Below are positions 13,679 through 21,320 of a DNA stretch of 64,000 nt, one piece after another. Numbering within the stretch: the first letter of the stretch is position 1; the number at the start of each line of letters is the position of its first letter. The stretch covers positions 1 to 64,000 of IMG/VR virus record IMGVR_UViG_3300028837_001424; one strand, 5' to 3'. Under the pieces are notes generated by a model. That model worked only from the letters and a program-made list of their open reading frames with translations. It ran no database searches and was not told the DNA's origin. A program made the translations under genes and the position numbers. The DNA comes from a virus.

Positions 13679-13939
13679 ATGATGATAATCAATATTGATC
13701 CAGATGACTATGTGACTGAAATTAGTCACAGTACATGTCCATTTCACAAGAAACATCCTGGGGAACCCTATGCTGGATGTAGCTGTTCTAGTAGTTATAT
13801 TCGACGACGGGCAACACCAGAAGAGCGTCGGACAAATAAGATTCAACGATTGACGAAAGAACTTCCATCTTTACGGTCAACGCTAAAAGCTAAAGAACGG
13901 GAACTGGAAACCGCACAAAGAAAGGCAGGTGATGTGTAG
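13679..13939 (+). CDS. Hypothetical protein flanked by 14-bp direct repeats
   Basis: AGAAAGGCAGGTGA at 13665-13678 and 13919-13932. Confidence 0.55.
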   Translation: MMIINIDPDDYVTEISHSTCPFHKKHPGEPYAGCSCSSSYIRRRATPEERRTNKIQRLTKELPSLRSTLKAKERELETAQRKAGDV

Positions 13940-14016
13940 TGTACCCGAAATATTATCCGGGATCAGTGCAAAAGCCGGGGGATGCGCATCCGGCATAAAA
14001 CACGCAACGCAATTTT

Positions 14017-14092
14017 AGCGGGTTAGCCTAGTCTGGCTCAAGGCGCTTGCTTTGGAAGTAAGAGATCGCTGGTTCAAATCCAGCACCCGCTA
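14017..14092 (+). tRNA. tRNA-Pro(TGG)
   Basis: Acceptor AGCGGGT/ACCCGCT; anticodon arm CTTGC-TTTGGAA-GTAAG; T arm GCTGG-TTCAAAT-CCAGC. Confidence 0.9.
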
Positions 14093-14094
14093 TT

Positions 14095-14200
14095 GGGCCT
14101 GATGGTTCGATTGGCGAGGAAAATGTAGCGGCTCCATGGAGCTACAGCGAATCGGTGTTTGTGCATACGCCATTCGCGGGTTCAATTCCCGCCAGGTCCA
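14095..14200 (+). ncRNA. Minimal tmRNA-like RNA (tRNA-like domain only, no mRNA-like domain)
   Basis: Acceptor GGGCCTG/CAGGTCC-A with G3:U70; unpaired D-loop ATGGTTCGA; helix-2-like TGGCG/CGCCA; T arm GCGGG-TTCAATT-CCCGC. Confidence 0.7.
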
Positions 14201-14201
14201 C

Positions 14202-14279
14202 TTGCCAGGCGGACAAAATTCGGCTTTATGCCGTGTGATTGTAGGACTACGGTCCGCACAATCCTATATCCTCTGGCAA
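14202..14279 (+). ncRNA. Structured element A (three-way junction)
   Basis: TTGCCAG/CTGGCAA closing stem; internal CGGC/GCCG and GATTGT-GGAC/GTCC-ACAATC hairpins. Confidence 0.4.
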
Positions 14280-14437
14280 ACTAGCGGCATACCCAACAGG
14301 GTTGAGTATAGGAAGAGGGTAGCCTCCAAGCATGTTAAGGACATACGGCTCTGCCCTGCGGGGCAGCAAACGGTGAGGACTATACCCAAGTCCGTTTCGA
14401 CCTTTATCGGCCAGCATGCACCCGAAGTGCCGCTAGT
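14280..14437 (+). ncRNA. Structured element B (multibranch, probable pseudoknot)
   Basis: ACTAGCGGCAT/GTGCCGCTAGT closing stem; several hairpins; 14302-14311 complementary (9/10) to hairpin-loop region 14380-14389. Confidence 0.55.
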
Positions 14438-14480
14438 GATTTACTGCCCATCTGACGCTTCGGCCTCGGATGGATTATGA

Positions 14481-14604
14481 GAAGCCCCTGCATCGAGGGA
14501 ACACAAACAACATAGGGCGCACTATGGCCTGCCTGAGAATAATTGCGTCGCTTAGGAACTGACTAAAAGAAGATTGTGTTGAACGACCTAGACAAGGGCT
14601 TCTC
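14481..14604 (+). ncRNA. Paralogous ncRNA, copy 1
   Basis: 5' GAAGCCCCTGCATCGAGGG ... 3' GAACGACCTAGACAAGGGCTTCTC; the ends base-pair. Confidence 0.55.
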
Positions 14605-14625
14605 TCTCATAAGAAAGGAGATCGA

Positions 14626-14847
14626 ATGAACGGCTGTATTAATGCTTCGGCGGATCAAGTGGTCAGGGTAAATAAAACATGGTCAGACACCAATCTTACT
14701 AGGAATTTTGGTGGGGACGCGTCGTTTGGCCGGTTGAAATGTCGCAATTGTGGCAATCTTACCTTTGAGGTGCTAGATACTGGTAGTTATGAGACATCAG
14801 CTAGGTGCGTTATTTGTGGGTATTATTACAAAGTACATTGTGGATGA
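14626..14847 (+). CDS. Small Zn-ribbon protein
   Basis: AAGGAG RBS; CRNC, CVIC. Confidence 0.6.
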   Translation: MNGCINASADQVVRVNKTWSDTNLTRNFGGDASFGRLKCRNCGNLTFEVLDTGSYETSARCVICGYYYKVHCG

Positions 14848-14861
14848 ACGAAGACATATCA

Positions 14862-14870
14862 TGCTATAAT
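14862..14870 (+). promoter_or_regulatory. Extended -10 promoter for ncRNA copy 2
   Basis: TGCTATAAT, 7 nt before the conserved 5' end. Confidence 0.55.
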
Positions 14871-14877
14871 GCTACAA

Positions 14878-15000
14878 GAAGCCCCTGGATCGAGGGTAGG
14901 CCGCGGAGGCGGTGGAGGAAGTCGGCGTATACCCGTTACTGTCCTTAGCTGAAAAACTGCCCACCGGCAAAGTGGTCGAGCGACCTCACAGGGGCCTCTC
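14878..15000 (+). ncRNA. Paralogous ncRNA, copy 2
   Basis: 5' GAAGCCCCTGGATCGAGGG ... 3' GAGCGACCTCACAGGGGCCTCTC; the ends base-pair. Confidence 0.55.
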
Positions 15001-15052
15001 AACCAAATAAATTGGCGATAAAACCAATTCCTTTGGTGACCAGGAGGATAAT

Positions 15053-15301
15053 ATGAGTTGGCAAACATGTCCGGTTTGTAACGGAACAGGCAAAGTTCCA
15101 AGAAGTTTCTATCCCGACTTGGGACCGCCAGGTTCATCTACTGCCGATAACTATGTGGAGTGTCGGTCGTGCTATGGGCGAGGTGTTTTGCAGAGTACTG
15201 TATATCCGCCATACACTCCTAAACCACCTTACGAGCCTCATCCAGTGTGGCCTTATGGTCCTTGGACGACATGGACATTTGGTAACACTTATATTGCGTG
15301 A
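15053..15301 (+). CDS. Small DnaJ-type Zn-finger protein
   Basis: CPVCNGTG, CRSCYGRG; AGGAGG RBS. Confidence 0.65.
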   Translation: MSWQTCPVCNGTGKVPRSFYPDLGPPGSSTADNYVECRSCYGRGVLQSTVYPPYTPKPPYEPHPVWPYGPWTTWTFGNTYIA

Positions 15302-15390
15302 ATGTAGAAAATAAGCAAAGTTCTACAAAGAAGCAAGAAAGTTTTCACTGGCACTGAAAACTTTTACCTAAAACACCATCACTATATTGC

Positions 15391-15419
15391 TTGACCCGAT
15401 GTTCCCTATACGGTATAAT
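15391..15419 (+). promoter_or_regulatory. Strong sigma70 promoter (TGTTCC spacer family)
   Basis: TTGACC-17nt-TATAAT. Confidence 0.7.
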
Positions 15420-15545
15420 ACAATCTAATTTGGAGGTTTATCATGATGCGAAAAGTGAAATACGCGTTGGCGTTTTTGGCGGGCTGTTGTTTTATATCTC
15501 TTGGGCCGAAGACAAGTAATAAGATCAAGTACGAAGGAGATTGAT

Positions 15546-15845
15546 ATGGCTACAGAAATCTATGGTGCATCCGACGATCTGATAGAAATTCGGGGCAACG
15601 TAAACGGTGAACATTGTCATGATGATGGTTTCTTGATCGTCTCTGACGGCACTGTATTAAAGATCAAATACGGCAAGGATGCGATGGCCATTTGGGAGAT
15701 ACGATTGATTGAGAAAGGCAATCTTTTCGCAACGATTGATCCCTGCTTTGACGAAAATGAGGCTCGCTATTCGGATACCGCCATGTTCGACGAAGGAGTC
15801 AAGTGGGTTTATTTTGCTAAAGAATTAAGTGGCCGAATCAAATAA
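15546..15845 (+). CDS. Phage hypothetical protein
   Basis: AAGGAG RBS; IYGASDDLIEI motif. Confidence 0.65.
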   Translation: MATEIYGASDDLIEIRGNVNGEHCHDDGFLIVSDGTVLKIKYGKDAMAIWEIRLIEKGNLFATIDPCFDENEARYSDTAMFDEGVKWVYFAKELSGRIK

Positions 15846-16359
15846 AAAGGAGATTGAGATGAAACTAGTAAAGCCATTCAGTTCATTCGGAATGAGCTAT
15901 AATTCGGTTTTTCAGTTCCTTCTCGAATCTAATAAGATTGAGAGAATAAACAAAGTCTCAGAACAAGAGATAACTGCGGCTCTACACTTTCTCAACCTGG
16001 AAGAACTGTCCATTGAGGACGTAGAAAAATTTGTGTCGATCACCGCACCCACTGCAGTCTTGCGAGACAAACTAGGTTCTGATGTGATGGTTGGCGATTA
16101 CCTACCGCCTCGTGGTAACCCACGCATTCGACTTCTGCTTTCTACGCTGTTGGAGCAGATAAACACTGGAGAGCTAGATGCTTTTCACGCCCATATTCAC
16201 TACGAGTACCTGCATCCTTTCACTGATGGCAATGGGCGATCGGGTAGACTGATTTGGTTGTGGCAGATGAAGGATGCTCCATTGGGTTTCCTGCATACAT
16301 TCTATTATCAGACATTGCGTGAGAGAAGGTGGTCTACCTTATCTAGCCCTCGGAGGTGA
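15829..16359 (+). CDS. Fic domain protein
   Basis: Canonical HPFTDGNGRSGR motif. Confidence 0.88.
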   Translation: MAESNKKEIEMKLVKPFSSFGMSYNSVFQFLLESNKIERINKVSEQEITAALHFLNLEELSIEDVEKFVSITAPTAVLRDKLGSDVMVGDYLPPRGNPRIRLLLSTLLEQINTGELDAFHAHIHYEYLHPFTDGNGRSGRLIWLWQMKDAPLGFLHTFYYQTLRERRWSTLSSPRR

Positions 16360-17458: not shown

Positions 17459-18124
17459 ATGACCTGGCATCCTGACATGCCCGAAGAATATAAGAATCAA
17501 ATCGTCACTGGCGATGCGCGTGAGTTGGCAAAGCGGATACCAGACGAGAGTGTTGATTTGATTTTTACTGATCCGGTTTATGACAGGATTGATGATTATG
17601 AGTGGTTGGCAGAAACGGCATATAGAATATTGAAATCAAATAGTGCTTGTCTAATTTGGCAAGGACAGCAATGGCTTGAGAAGACTTATTTGGCGTTGTC
17701 TAAATCCTCCCTAAAATATAGGTGGCAGTTAGGTTGGTATGCTTCCAACAATATGCAGATGGTGGGAAAGATAGGGCGCAAGATTGCGCCCTTGCTGTGG
17801 TACGAAAAAGGACATAGCAATCCTTGGCGATGCTGTCGCGAAATTGTTAATGCGCCAATAACTAGCGGTAAACGACCCCACAAATGTGCAAAGCGCCCAG
17901 ATGCAATTGCGCATTATTTAGAAAAATTCTTAATTGAAATCGGAGTGGTGTTCGACCCATTTTGCGGTGGCGGAACAATCCCCGCAGTATGCAAGCAACT
18001 ATCCCGCAACTACATCGCATTCGAGATTGACCCCGACACTGCCGAGTTAGCCAGAGAGCGAGTGCTAAATACTCAGCCGCCGTTGTTCGTTATGGAGCCT
18101 GAGCAGTTGGAGTTGTCCGAATGA
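17459..18124 (+). CDS. DNA amino-methyltransferase (beta class, DPVY variant)
   Basis: GDARE...VDLIFTDPVY; FDPFCGGGT; AFEIDP. Confidence 0.85.
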   Translation: MTWHPDMPEEYKNQIVTGDARELAKRIPDESVDLIFTDPVYDRIDDYEWLAETAYRILKSNSACLIWQGQQWLEKTYLALSKSSLKYRWQLGWYASNNMQMVGKIGRKIAPLLWYEKGHSNPWRCCREIVNAPITSGKRPHKCAKRPDAIAHYLEKFLIEIGVVFDPFCGGGTIPAVCKQLSRNYIAFEIDPDTAELARERVLNTQPPLFVMEPEQLELSE

Positions 18125-18585
18125 GCTTTATTTATAATCTTACTCAGGGCATTCGAAATATCATTTATTGGTTACCTGTTATATGGCGGGATCGTAATTG
18201 GGATTATTCATATTTTCTTGAGATCCTGAGGCACAAGCTTTATGCCATTCGTCTAGATATACCTAATTGGACCCGCGCGGAGAAGGAGAAAGACGAAGAG
18301 AATATTGAATACGTGATCTCATTAATTGACGCTGTAGTAAACGATGAATATGAGAAACAAGCGTTTGATAAGCACAGGCAGCACTGGGGCAGCCCCAAAG
18401 TGGTATTCGAATCAATTGACGATAAATTCAGCGAGATGACCTTTGTCTACCCAGAAGCATCCAGCCAAGCGGAAGCCGGAGAGCAACTAAGCAGGTTGCT
18501 CCGCGAGGCCATGCGCAAAAGGCAAGAAGCGATAAACATATTGTTCGGGATAATAAGAGACAGCTTCGAGACTTGGTGGATTTGA
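18121..18585 (+). CDS. Phage hypothetical protein
   Basis: WLPVIWRDRNWDY...WW motif common in large phages. Confidence 0.65.
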   Translation: MSFIYNLTQGIRNIIYWLPVIWRDRNWDYSYFLEILRHKLYAIRLDIPNWTRAEKEKDEENIEYVISLIDAVVNDEYEKQAFDKHRQHWGSPKVVFESIDDKFSEMTFVYPEASSQAEAGEQLSRLLREAMRKRQEAINILFGIIRDSFETWWI

Positions 18586-21320
18586 TGTCATGGTATGAGA
18601 TCATAGAGCAAGACATAATCCAGTGGCTTCAAAATTATGAGGGCGAGCGCTTCCACGCTATTCTGTCAGATCCGCCGTATGCGCTAATATCAGTTACAAA
18701 ACGCTTTGGTAAAGAATGTTCCGCGCCTGCGCAAGAGGGCGCGGATGGTCGTTATAGCCGGCTGAGTGGTGGCTTCATGAACCAGGTTTGGGATTCGTTT
18801 GAAAGTTTGGAACATTATAGAGAGTGGGTAAAGACCTGGGCAAAGCTATTGATTGAAAAGGCACTGTATCCAGGGGCGGTTTGCTTATTTTTTGGCGGTT
18901 GTTATGATGAGGAAACAGAACTTCTAACTAAGAGAGGCTGGATTAAATTTGCAGACGTTATAAAAACCGATTATATTATGACTCTGAATCCAAAGACTGA
19001 CAAAATAGAATATCACTTACCTATAGAGATAGTTAAACAACAATATAAAGGACCTATGTATCGATTATTAAATAATAAAGTTGATCTTTATGTCACGCAT
19101 GATCATTGGGTTTATTCGGCACCATTCAACAGTAGGCATAAGAGTAAGCGTTTTTGCCTCCGCACTGCCAAGGAAATAGCGGGTAAACATGTTCACTTTA
19201 AAAAGGACGGTATCTGGCTTGGAAAAGATCAAAAACATTTCATTTTACCTAGTTGCAAAAAGCGACTTGGCGGACCAATATCGAGAGTAATCATTGAGCC
19301 AAGCAAGATGATTCCAATGAAAAAGTGGCTCAAGTTTTTCGGACTATGGATAGCCGAGGGTAGCGCATCAAAAATAAAAGCACCGTCTGGATATAGCTAT
19401 AGAGCATCAATTGCGCACTTTGACATACAGAATTTGAACGAGATAAAAGATGAATTAGTACCTTGGTTCAACATGCGAATATATCCTAAGTATGGGAAGG
19501 CCAACATTTATGGCCGCCAAATTTATGAATACCTAAAGAATTTTGGACATGCGTCAGATAAATATATACCCGATTGGCTAAAAGAATTGACCCCTGAATT
19601 AATACGTTTATTTCTTGAATGGTATCGTAGGGGCGATGGAGATAAAAATAGGTTTAGACTATATACAAGTTCAACAAAGCTAGCAGACGGGCTTCAAGAA
19701 TTGGCACTAAAAGCCGGATGGTCGGCAGATGTATATGTTAGAAACAAAAGGAAACCAAGCTATATAAACGGCAGACAAATAATTGCTCGCCACCCACAAT
19801 TTGTTATCGCCATCAATGTAGTACAAAATCAACCGCACAAGAACCCACATAAAACAAAAATAGAAGAGTGGGTTGATTATGACGGTGATGTTTATTGTGT
19901 TGAAGTACCAAATCATATAATCTACGTAAGGCGAGGAGGAAAAGCTGTTTGGTGTGGAAATACTAGAACTTGGCATCATTTGGCACTTGGTTTGGAGCAG
20001 GGCGGTTTTGAAATTTTCGAAACATTAATGTGGTTGACGGGACAAGGATTCCCGAAAAGTTTTGATATAAGTAAGGGGATAGATCGAGCGGCTGGTAAAG
20101 AGCGTTCTGTGGTTAGAACAACCAAAAGTGGGGGATATAAGCGCATTATGATAACCAACGAGGAGGCTGGTTTTCGTCCAAAAGACTATTACCCAGAAGG
20201 CAATAAATTTACTTCAAATGATCCCATTACGCCAGAAGCCATACCGTGGCGCGGGTATGGCTCAGCCCTTAAACCGGCCTGGAATCCGATTCTCCTATGT
20301 CGTACCCCTAGGAAGGGTGCTACGTTCGCCTCGCTTGCTCTGGAGCATGGGAGCGGGTCGTTGAACATCGATGGAGGACGACTCGGCTATAAAAGCGATG
20401 TAGATAAAGCATCGGCGACACCACAAGGCAAGCCAACTGCCAAATCTGGCGCGTTAGCCGGTGGCATTCAGCACGGAGATGAACGAACGGAATTTGAGCG
20501 GCCAAATCTAAAGGGCCGCTGGCCGGCAAACCTTTTATTGTCCCACCATGAAGACTGTGTGAAAATTGGAACATTCGAAGTGCCGGCACGAGTTATAAAC
20601 CGATGGCTAGATGGAATGAAGCCATTTGGTGATGGCGCAGGTGGCGAATATGAAAGCGTCCATCCTACAAGGAAAGGTGAAGCATCGGCAGACAGAACTT
20701 ATGAAGATGAAGGCGGTACAGACTTTGCCATGAAGCCAGGCGCACGACGAGACAAAGAAATGGAAACCGTCGAGCGTTGGGCCTGTGTACCAGAATGTCC
20801 GATCAGGCAGTTGGATGACCAGGCGGGCGCAAATATGCACAGCGCGGGTGTTGCCAGAAAATCTATTCGTAAGGCCGATGCCACGGGGATGTTCAATCTC
20901 CCAGGCGACGGCCATAGATATGGCGACACCGGCGGTCCCGCGCGTTTCTTTTATTGCGGCAAAGCCAGCCGAGCCGAGAAGGACAAAGGGCTTGAGGAGT
21001 TCTATTGGAGGCGTACAGGCAAGGGCTTTGAAAGGGTCGACCAAGAAGTATGGGCAAAGCTAGAGCTACGCGAGCGGGCGCGGGGCTGCATTCATCCAAC
21101 AGTAAAACCATTGGGCGTCTGCCGATATCTAGCAACCCTTATTCTACCGCCAAAGCAGGAAGATAGAACAAGGCGAATCCTTATTCCATTCTCTGGATCT
21201 GGCTCAGAAATTATCGCTGCCAGACAAGCGGGTTGGGATCTTGTGGTAGGCATTGAAATGAAATCGTTGTATAATGAGTTATCCCGTGCACGTATAAGTG
21301 CCAACATAGGGATGTTCTAA
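18585..21320 (+). CDS. DNA amino-methyltransferase, intein-containing
   Basis: SDPPY; GFPKS; ALKPAW; GRWPAN; ARFFY; HPTVKP; PFSGSGS; TGATG-coupled start at 18585. Confidence 0.9.
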   Translation: MSWYEIIEQDIIQWLQNYEGERFHAILSDPPYALISVTKRFGKECSAPAQEGADGRYSRLSGGFMNQVWDSFESLEHYREWVKTWAKLLIEKALYPGAVCLFFGGCYDEETELLTKRGWIKFADVIKTDYIMTLNPKTDKIEYHLPIEIVKQQYKGPMYRLLNNKVDLYVTHDHWVYSAPFNSRHKSKRFCLRTAKEIAGKHVHFKKDGIWLGKDQKHFILPSCKKRLGGPISRVIIEPSKMIPMKKWLKFFGLWIAEGSASKIKAPSGYSYRASIAHFDIQNLNEIKDELVPWFNMRIYPKYGKANIYGRQIYEYLKNFGHASDKYIPDWLKELTPELIRLFLEWYRRGDGDKNRFRLYTSSTKLADGLQELALKAGWSADVYVRNKRKPSYINGRQIIARHPQFVIAINVVQNQPHKNPHKTKIEEWVDYDGDVYCVEVPNHIIYVRRGGKAVWCGNTRTWHHLALGLEQGGFEIFETLMWLTGQGFPKSFDISKGIDRAAGKERSVVRTTKSGGYKRIMITNEEAGFRPKDYYPEGNKFTSNDPITPEAIPWRGYGSALKPAWNPILLCRTPRKGATFASLALEHGSGSLNIDGGRLGYKSDVDKASATPQGKPTAKSGALAGGIQHGDERTEFERPNLKGRWPANLLLSHHEDCVKIGTFEVPARVINRWLDGMKPFGDGAGGEYESVHPTRKGEASADRTYEDEGGTDFAMKPGARRDKEMETVERWACVPECPIRQLDDQAGANMHSAGVARKSIRKADATGMFNLPGDGHRYGDTGGPARFFYCGKASRAEKDKGLEEFYWRRTGKGFERVDQEVWAKLELRERARGCIHPTVKPLGVCRYLATLILPPKQEDRTRRILIPFSGSGSEIIAARQAGWDLVVGIEMKSLYNELSRARISANIGMF
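18900..19961 (+). mobile_element. Intein (354 aa) with LAGLIDADG endonuclease, in the MTase
   Basis: Starts CYDEETELLTKRGW; VTHDH; FFGLWIAEG; ends VYCVEVPNH...VWCGN before Thr. Confidence 0.9.

Follow-up and report, generated by a model that had tools for sequence, protein, structure and literature searches.

The first 64,000 nucleotides (nt) of the IMG/VR virus record IMGVR_UViG_3300028837_001424, the whole of which stretch is referred to here as the window, carry between positions 14,481 and 15,000 two short elements with like ends and unlike middles. In silico analyses indicate that these elements are probably diverged copies of a widespread family of structured small RNAs encoded by phages, which would act as discrete molecules either on a universal target or through a chemistry of their own. 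As predicted from sequence comparison, it is a widespread family of phage-encoded RNAs of ca. 80-150 nt for which no prior description was found: Rfam 15 gave no match, the motif occurred in the paper library solely as unrelated DNA primers, and the very large catalogues of unnamed candidate phage RNAs (e.g. PMC10690425) may list the family undescribed. An initial annotation of the window had read the elements as non-coding RNA genes with constant paired ends and a variable inner domain, assigned to no known family, had taken the constant part for a putative protein-binding scaffold and had likened the elements to guide RNAs, Y RNA and 6S-like decoys. The gene call, the architecture and the lack of a family assignment stand, while the likeness to guide RNAs and to Y RNA or 6S finds no support (see below).

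The two copies share a 5' block, GAAGCCCCTG[C/G]ATCGAGGG, with 18 of 19 nt identical (14481-14499, GAAGCCCCTGCATCGAGGG; 14878-14896, GAAGCCCCTGGATCGAGGG). At up to 3 mismatches, this block has just two matches in the window and in the whole genome of 112,591 base pairs (bp), where shuffled sequences would be expected to give 0.10, and the two copies of the window are the only copies of the RNA in this 112.6-kilobase (kb) phage genome. A shared 3' block begins ca. 81 nt past the 5' block in both copies (GAACGACCTAGACAAGGGCTTCTC at 14581-14604 and GAGCGACCT-CACAGGGGCCTCTC at 14978-15000) and can be aligned with one 1-nt indel. The ends pair as had been described, 14481-14490 with 14593-14602 in copy 1 and 14878-14887 with 14989-14998 in copy 2, with one C/A and one A/C mismatch, respectively. 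Copy 1 has AACACAA/TTGTGTT as its inner helix and copy 2 the unlike GGCCGC/GTGGTC (Table 1), and the middles of the two copies cannot be aligned. The box TGCTATAAT is also found where it had been reported, with a 7-nt gap to G14878, the first base of copy 2. Since the folding energies of the single sequences are unremarkable (z-scores of -1.0 and -1.3), the case for the copies rests on the repeat statistics and on covarying homologs.

Viral, genome and metagenome collections were scanned for homologs with exact-core patterns that allowed 45-106 nt between the two blocks, and hits were filtered for at least 5 contiguous pairs in P1, the helix formed by the two ends. An exact search of IMG/VR with the 5' block returned one true relative (locus L005), which has the same ends around an unrelated 59-nt middle, and a looser pattern retrieved contigs that keep GC-AUCGAGGG and GAGCGACCUGGAC and in which the flanking helix is wholly different yet complementary. 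In the metagenome scan, the P1 filter was passed by 87 of 118 pattern hits as compared to ca. 0.7% by chance. Phage and metagenome contigs together contributed 122 distinct members, whose length is 79-147 nt with a median of 104, and the family is spread over more than a hundred phages that are not otherwise related. Bacterial genome assemblies gave 19 hits, mostly chance matches in high-GC coding DNA (20-31 bits, without P1), so that a bacterial chromosomal gene was dismissed; just four contigs of metagenome-assembled genomes look real, which makes this essentially a phage element. An isolate-derived member, L203, could not be placed in plasmid or phage collections. A covariance model of the family, R1, was used in the searches below; its E-values are rough and its training set includes the window copies.

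The layout of the family runs from a terminal helix (P1) through a near-invariant asymmetric internal loop and a 4-bp helix (P2) to a distal domain that varies in length and fold. P1 pairs the 5' end with the 3' end over 5-16 bp plus a fixed G-C closing pair, and its sequence varies freely. Aligning 48 members showed 86% of the cells of the named structure to be paired, as against 33-38% in slid controls, and none of 500 shuffles reaches the observed covariation score. The inner five pairs of P1, which served in member selection, are nearly always formed in this alignment, with 4-6 pair types. P2, which lay outside the selection criteria and whose register joins the base following GGG to the one preceding AGCGACC, has its four pairs formed in 96, 96, 93 and 82% of the 122 members, with many pair types. 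Covariation among homologs, when looked for, was thus present in both P1 and P2, and it backs the reading of the two copies as non-coding RNA genes; the proposed division into constant paired ends and an inner domain that varies likewise extends to the 122 members, of which P1, loop and P2 alone are kept and the distal part differs from one to another. P2 contains more G-U than A-C pairs (14 versus 6), and flanking genes are co-oriented with the element at 39 loci and opposite to it at 8, which fits an RNA read from the + strand. Around a quarter of the members have an extended design made of a P3 hairpin (CGUC-ACUAA-GRCG), a P4 helix and a conserved GCCGA/UCGGC hairpin, and in this CUAAG subclass RNAalifold found compensatory changes in 18 of 31 pairs. 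The remaining members, window copies included, have unrelated distal domains. A universal GAAA loop docking into the core was considered and rejected, GAAA being no more than mildly enriched (51 of 122 members versus 32 expected).

The core, lying between the closing G-C pair of P1 and the first pair of P2, reads CAUYGAGGG on its 5' side and AGCGACCUGGA on its 3' side, with ca. 20 bases nearly fixed. This invariance exceeds an artefact of the search pattern, since positions that had been freed or left unspecified stayed near-constant. The GC linker and the A before GCGACC (A181) were left unspecified in the targeted scan and are nevertheless constant in all true hits; where U-G-G was freed, every P1-bearing hit had UGG, and where U-C-G was freed, hits had UCG (ca. 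30) or UUG (4 distinct hits) and nothing else, the UUG variant retaining a wobble pair with the proposed partner G. According to our model, the loop can form a short irregular helix (UY/GA, a G.G mismatch, AGG/CCU) with CA and the purine-rich AGCGA unpaired, a pairing on which covariation is silent because the loop bases are invariant. Manual comparison of the loop with the kink-turn, loop E and hammerhead motifs gave no fit. Such near-total invariance across unrelated phages is more typical of the cores of ribozymes and aptamers, or of RNAs that contact the translation machinery, than of decoys, Y RNA and 6S decoys conserving shape and not sequence.

Table 1. Coordinates of the two RNA copies, their parts and adjacent features in the window.
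Feature	Position	Strand	Remarks
Copy 1 of the RNA	14481-14604	+	Repeat, pairing and fold; 44.5 bits with family model R1 (copy 1 in training set)
Copy 1, P1 5' strand	14481-14489
Copy 1, closing G	14490
Copy 1, loop 5' strand	14491-14499		CAUCGAGGG
Copy 1, P2 5' strand	14500-14506		AACACAA
Copy 1, P2 3' strand	14574-14580		UUGUGUU
Copy 1, loop 3' strand	14581-14592		GAACGACCUAGA
Copy 1, closing C	14593
Copy 1, P1 3' strand	14594-14602
Small open reading frame, 73 amino acids	14626-14847	+	Two CxxC pairs; 22 nt past copy 1, behind a Shine-Dalgarno sequence; no Pfam family; context
Extended -10 promoter-like box	14862-14870	+	TGCTATAAT; without a good -35 box; absent from the output of a two-hexamer promoter scan
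Copy 2 of the RNA	14878-14998	+	Repeat, pairing and fold; 31.7 bits with R1 (copy 2 in training set)
Copy 2, P1 5' strand	14878-14886
Copy 2, closing G	14887
Copy 2, loop 5' strand	14888-14896		GAUCGAGGG
Copy 2, P2 5' strand	14899-14904		GGCCGC
Copy 2, P2 3' strand	14972-14977		GUGGUC
Copy 2, loop 3' strand	14978-14988		(G)AGCGACCUCA
Copy 2, closing C	14989
Copy 2, P1 3' strand	14990-14998
Small open reading frame, 82 amino acids	15053-15301	+	Two CxxCxGxG-like motifs, resembling a DnaJ-type zinc finger; downstream of copy 2; context

The RNA occurs in exactly one copy in each of 36 other phage records, 18 of which are at least 90% complete (31-120 kb), and the window phage with its two copies is an exception to this rule. 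When 14 near-complete carrier genomes (43-64% GC) were compared by BLASTP, the top shared family, found in 7 of them, was that of DNA methyltransferases, and no other was found in more than 4. DNA methyltransferases were also the only family to recur (8 loci) when open reading frames (ORFs) within 3.5 kb of 52 members were clustered. This recurrence near the RNA is a poor sign of linkage because such genes are common in phages. In L005, P1 and the 5' core are identical to those of the window copies, yet its 14-kb fragment has no protein in common with the window phage. Neighbouring genes are varied (terminase, protease, minor head genes, deoxycytidine monophosphate deaminase, single-stranded DNA-binding protein, exonuclease, methyltransferase, integrase) and the first downstream ORFs have nothing in common across members. 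None of 19 carrier phage records contained a Ro/TROVE gene (PF05731), which the search did detect in Deinococcus and Bacteroides as positive controls.

Transfer RNA (tRNA) genes occur within 400 nt on the same strand in 21 members and on the opposite strand in none. In 10 members, a gap of 0-14 nt separates P1 from the nearest upstream tRNA, and in 6 the next tRNA begins 3-18 nt past P1, always on the same strand; at L143, the element stands between two tRNA genes with spacers of ca. 1 and 12 nt, and L210 has a similar layout. At L005, L196, L162 and L129, as well as at copy 2 of the window, a recognisable sigma-70 promoter would put the transcription start at or beside the first base of P1. 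L005 and L196 have full TTGACA-17-TAnnnT promoters (TTGACA-17-TAGACT in L005), with the same promoter-to-P1 spacing as copy 2. Terminator-like hairpins with U runs were seen by eye after the element in L005 (ca. 70 nt beyond) and in L139. At L129 (1230-1440, + strand), the same promoter-like block (CAGCAGATG[T/C]GCTAC...) is found just before and just after the RNA gene, which suggests that the RNA lies in a repeated promoter module. Directly upstream of the member L207:2871-2984, a segment (L207:2985-3030, - strand) ends with ...GCAGGUUCAAUUCCUGCCAGCUCCAC, which we take to resemble closely the 3' end of bacterial transfer-messenger RNA (tmRNA); this tail could be an attachment-site copy of ssrA or of another tmRNA-like gene.

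Known families were compared by means of Rfam 15 (4227 models), a covariance-model match at or near the gathering score being taken as membership. Over the window at gathering scores, this search returned three tRNAs and nothing else. Neither copy was matched in the region 13900-15500 at E<=10, and at nine loci with canonical members no match fell on the elements at E<=5, in agreement with the initial failure to assign the copies to a family. Detection of tRNA and tmRNA by ARAGORN and Rfam never called the elements though it did call the flanking tRNAs. Y RNA and YrlA (RF00019, RF02553) are alike in layout only, having an end-to-end stem with a conserved irregular helix and a variable module, whereas the phage family has ca. 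20 nt nearly fixed and Y RNAs rather keep their shape. The Y RNA, YrlA and 6S models gave no match on the copies, which argues against the proposed parallel with Y RNA and 6S-like decoys; a single YrlA row (15.7 bits, E 6.4) fell off the copies, on a tmRNA-like element (14152-14237). The guide-RNA idea fares no better, as the longest antisense match of the middles to the phage genome is 11 nt and equals the shuffled expectation.

Species 1 and 2 of phage T4 (rnaC and rnaD) resemble the family in being encoded by a phage, in having the size of a tRNA or slightly more and in standing in a row with tRNA genes; as in the window, they form a pair side by side. To our knowledge, these stable RNAs are released together with the tRNAs and their function was never established. 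R1 gave no match at E<=10 in positions 68000-78000 of T4, the sequences of which were also read by eye. By eye, the 3' end of rnaC corresponds to a T-arm and an acceptor strand as in a tRNA or tmRNA domain; the phage family has no such end, and unlike species 1 and 2 most of its members lie away from tRNAs. The tRNA-like domain of tmRNA itself (RF00023) is similar in its terminal helix of 7-9 bp, in UCGA..GGG leading into a long helix and in GGAC before the returning strand. This likeness is loose, recalling the consensus blocks GAUUCGACGGG and CGGAC over few bases compared by eye, and the family differs in having no T-arm, G3:U70 pair, CCA end or Rfam match. Mimicry of ribosomal RNA was also looked for: R1 gave no match in the E. 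coli rrnH operon, and a motif search yielded pieces with 1-3 mismatches, as by chance. A likeness seen by eye to 23S positions 1340-1385 (GAGUCGACC...CUAAGGCG...UCGAUGGG) and to the helix 42 loop was rejected because the strand order is swapped and part of the match lies in covarying P2 bases, and an 8-nt complement to 23S around position 2500 is at chance level.

A discrete stable RNA appears most likely, given that the element directly adjoins tRNA genes on both sides in some members and begins at a good promoter in others. The ends of this molecule would be the two strands of P1, and it would be produced either as a primary transcript starting at P1 or by being cut from tRNA arrays by the enzymes that trim tRNAs. 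Its working site would be the conserved loop clamped between P1 and P2, the distal domain serving as a scaffold that merely holds the strands together. The loop would act on something universal without a phage-specific partner, because no phage protein travels with the RNA and the GC content of the carriers (see above) suggests diverse hosts; the near-fixed core together with the lack of a shared phage protein points to a self-contained RNA activity or to a universal host target, perhaps translation. Self-contained chemistry, whether catalysis or ligand binding, seems quite possible. Host translation or the tRNA machinery, towards which the tRNA-array link points, is a possible target, and another host protein a rather doubtful one. 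We further propose, tentatively, that the loop is a self-contained core of one of two kinds: that of a hitherto undescribed class of small ribozymes that cleave themselves, or an aptamer recognising some universal small molecule, in which case the RNA would be a free sponge or sensor and not a riboswitch.

New RNA classes that combine strong covariation, a near-fixed core and a wide spread are now rare, and earlier finds of this kind proved to be ribozymes, riboswitches or components of basic machinery. The RNA is the sole conserved feature among the compared carrier phages, which have almost no proteins in common. Because it occurs once per carrier genome examined, would sometimes be expressed like a tRNA and is accompanied by few shared proteins, it probably makes contact with something that all bacterial hosts share. 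It is a small object (down to ca. 80 nt), open to direct testing, and bears on the 50-year-old question of why the tRNA clusters of phages also contain stable RNAs other than tRNAs, such as species 1 and 2 in T4.

Several points weigh against a free-standing RNA with a universal target or its own chemistry. The argument for universality is one from absence, drawn at the BLASTP level from 14 genomes. Members were ascertained by an exact core, so that variation at never-freed positions lies outside the sample, as do forms whose blocks are less than 45 nt apart. Cultured phages yielded no carrier: blastn queries with three members returned nothing but short spurious matches, and the model rejected two candidates. 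A U-rich tract is found directly 3' of P1 in 11 of 45 members (about a quarter), and an ORF preceded by a Shine-Dalgarno sequence begins 20-30 nt downstream in about a third of the members, both window copies included; these two features fit a leader acting in cis as well as a free RNA. Finally, the window copies break positions that are otherwise fixed and could be decaying. In copy 1, AG is changed to GAA and UGG to UAG; in copy 2, the linker C (first C of the loop) is changed to G and UGGA to UCA. These changes are in no other member among the 122 collected, and for this reason the window copies may have altered or lost the canonical activity.

We rank the possible explanations in the order free-standing RNA with a universal target or its own chemistry, ribozyme processing transcripts, leader acting in cis and site acting at the DNA level. 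The ribozyme would be a new small self-cleaving or RNA-processing module that cuts polycistronic phage transcripts, including tRNA arrays, with no host factor. Known small ribozymes likewise combine a fixed core, here of ca. 20 nt, with helices that covary and a periphery that varies, and such a module could serve in any of the contexts observed, between tRNAs, before ORFs and in head, DNA-metabolism or integration modules, without the partner protein that the 14 carrier genomes indeed do not share. In the fold of hepatitis delta virus (HDV) ribozymes, the 5' end pairs internally within a nested double pseudoknot. A precedent is offered by the HDV-like theta ribozymes, which according to PMC10879173 adjoin phage tRNAs and which resemble the family as small structured RNAs beside phage tRNA genes with no protein partner required. 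Unlike them, the phage family pairs its 5' end with its 3' end, and neither the HDV-type models nor any other Rfam model of a small self-cleaving ribozyme (hammerhead, twister, twister-sister, pistol, hatchet, hairpin, HDV-like) gave a match; by inspection for ribozyme cores, CUGANGA...GAAA is absent and the end-to-end P1 misfits the HDV topology. Moreover, ca. 16 of the 122 members, and no more, lie within 18 nt of a tRNA, several members have their first base exactly at a transcription start, so that a cut at the 5' end would serve no purpose, the window copies are without bases that are otherwise fixed, and a cleavage site cannot be named from the sequence alone. We thus regard a processing ribozyme as unlikely. 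A 5' leader controlling downstream genes, be it a riboswitch-like aptamer, an attenuator or an RNA acting on the transcribing polymerase, seems distinctly improbable. Besides the U-rich tracts and the downstream ORFs just mentioned, it would account for promoters that set the transcription start at P1, and it would have a precedent in putL and putR of phage HK022, a paralogous leader pair in one phage. The put RNAs are structured, lie just past promoters and act without a phage protein; they are made of two simple stem-loops and are known from HK022 and close relatives. The family, however, also occurs inside tRNA arrays, where members have no gene to regulate, and R1 gave no match in the whole HK022 genome at E<=10. 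Downstream genes are heterogeneous and have nothing in common, the Shine-Dalgarno sequence is free and not sequestered by structure, and some members are followed by a terminator-like hairpin of their own (by eye). A riboswitch proper, which calls for an expression platform in a 5' untranslated region and a consistent class of regulated genes, was rejected on the heterogeneous downstream genes, the free Shine-Dalgarno sequences and the members between tRNA genes.

If the window copies were neutral duplicates or remnants in decay, derived from a canonical gene whose function they had lost, this would explain why they carry changes at positions fixed in all other collected members, why they have the lowest R1 scores despite being in the training set and why all 36 other records have a single canonical copy. 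This reading is nevertheless improbable: P1 and P2 pairing is kept in both copies although their P2 sequences differ, the near-identity of the 5' block beside unrelated middles indicates continued selection on the ends, and copy 2 retains its promoter box at the usual spacing of the family. Window-type variant cores were searched for elsewhere and none was real, a weak negative since the gap range scanned (50-80 nt) missed the 81-82 nt of the window itself; the candidates L448 and L451 lie inside an ORF. Least credible is an element acting as DNA, such as a recombination site, a single-strand site folded like attC or a miniature mobile element with inverted ends, which we regard as highly improbable. 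It could draw on the inverted paired ends around an unrelated middle, on the cassette-like alternation of elements and small ORFs in the window and on the match of L005 in a fragment unrelated by its proteins. Yet the family keeps its inner loop fixed and lets the ends in P1 vary freely, contrary to what is seen in attC or at transposon ends, and the nested covarying inner helices with a three-way junction, the excess of G-U over A-C pairs, an orientation that follows transcription, the single copy per genome and the occupation of tRNA slots also speak against it. Integron attC, with its outer sites RYYYAAC...GTTRRRY, was rejected on the variable outer helix, the fixed inner loop and the one copy per genome.

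The surroundings of the two copies have further features. The 82-amino-acid ORF downstream of copy 2 has matches to DnaJ_CXXCXGXG and Anti-TRAP, both sub-threshold, and small cysteine-rich ORFs also occur downstream of the element in L204 and L127, most members having other neighbours. Upstream of copy 1 by ca. 280 nt and directly after a tRNA-Pro gene (14016-14093), a 109-nt segment (14095-14203, + strand) resembles a miniature tRNA-like domain of tmRNA, with an acceptor stem GGGCCUG/CAGGUCC including G3:U70, a T-arm CGCGGGUUCAAUUCCCGCC, a short insert and no mRNA-like part; its Rfam tmRNA score of 38 bits is below the gathering score of 47, and ARAGORN made no call. The T-arm and acceptor strand seen by eye at the end of T4 rnaC are comparable to those of this segment. 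The following 277 nt (14204-14480, + strand) fold at -107.3 kcal/mol compared to -87.6 kcal/mol in shuffles (z-score -4.06, 0 of 200 as good), into a branched unit of ca. 74 nt, a long unit of ca. 158 nt and a hairpin. An ORF of 114 amino acids over this fold (14136-14480) starts inside the tmRNA-like element and is probably spurious. Taken together, 14016-15000 looks like an island of non-coding RNA genes.

Further downstream, 0.8 kb past copy 2, an ORF of 176 amino acids (15829-16359, + strand) has a Fic/DOC domain (E 5e-8), and its product is possibly a host-modifying enzyme in the same early-looking block. Finally, two DNA methyltransferase-like ORFs are found at 17459-18124 and 18573-21320 (+ strand), the longer of which (915 amino acids) has a LAGLIDADG match in mid-protein, just under the Pfam cut-off, and in view of this weak match may contain an intein or an inserted homing endonuclease.

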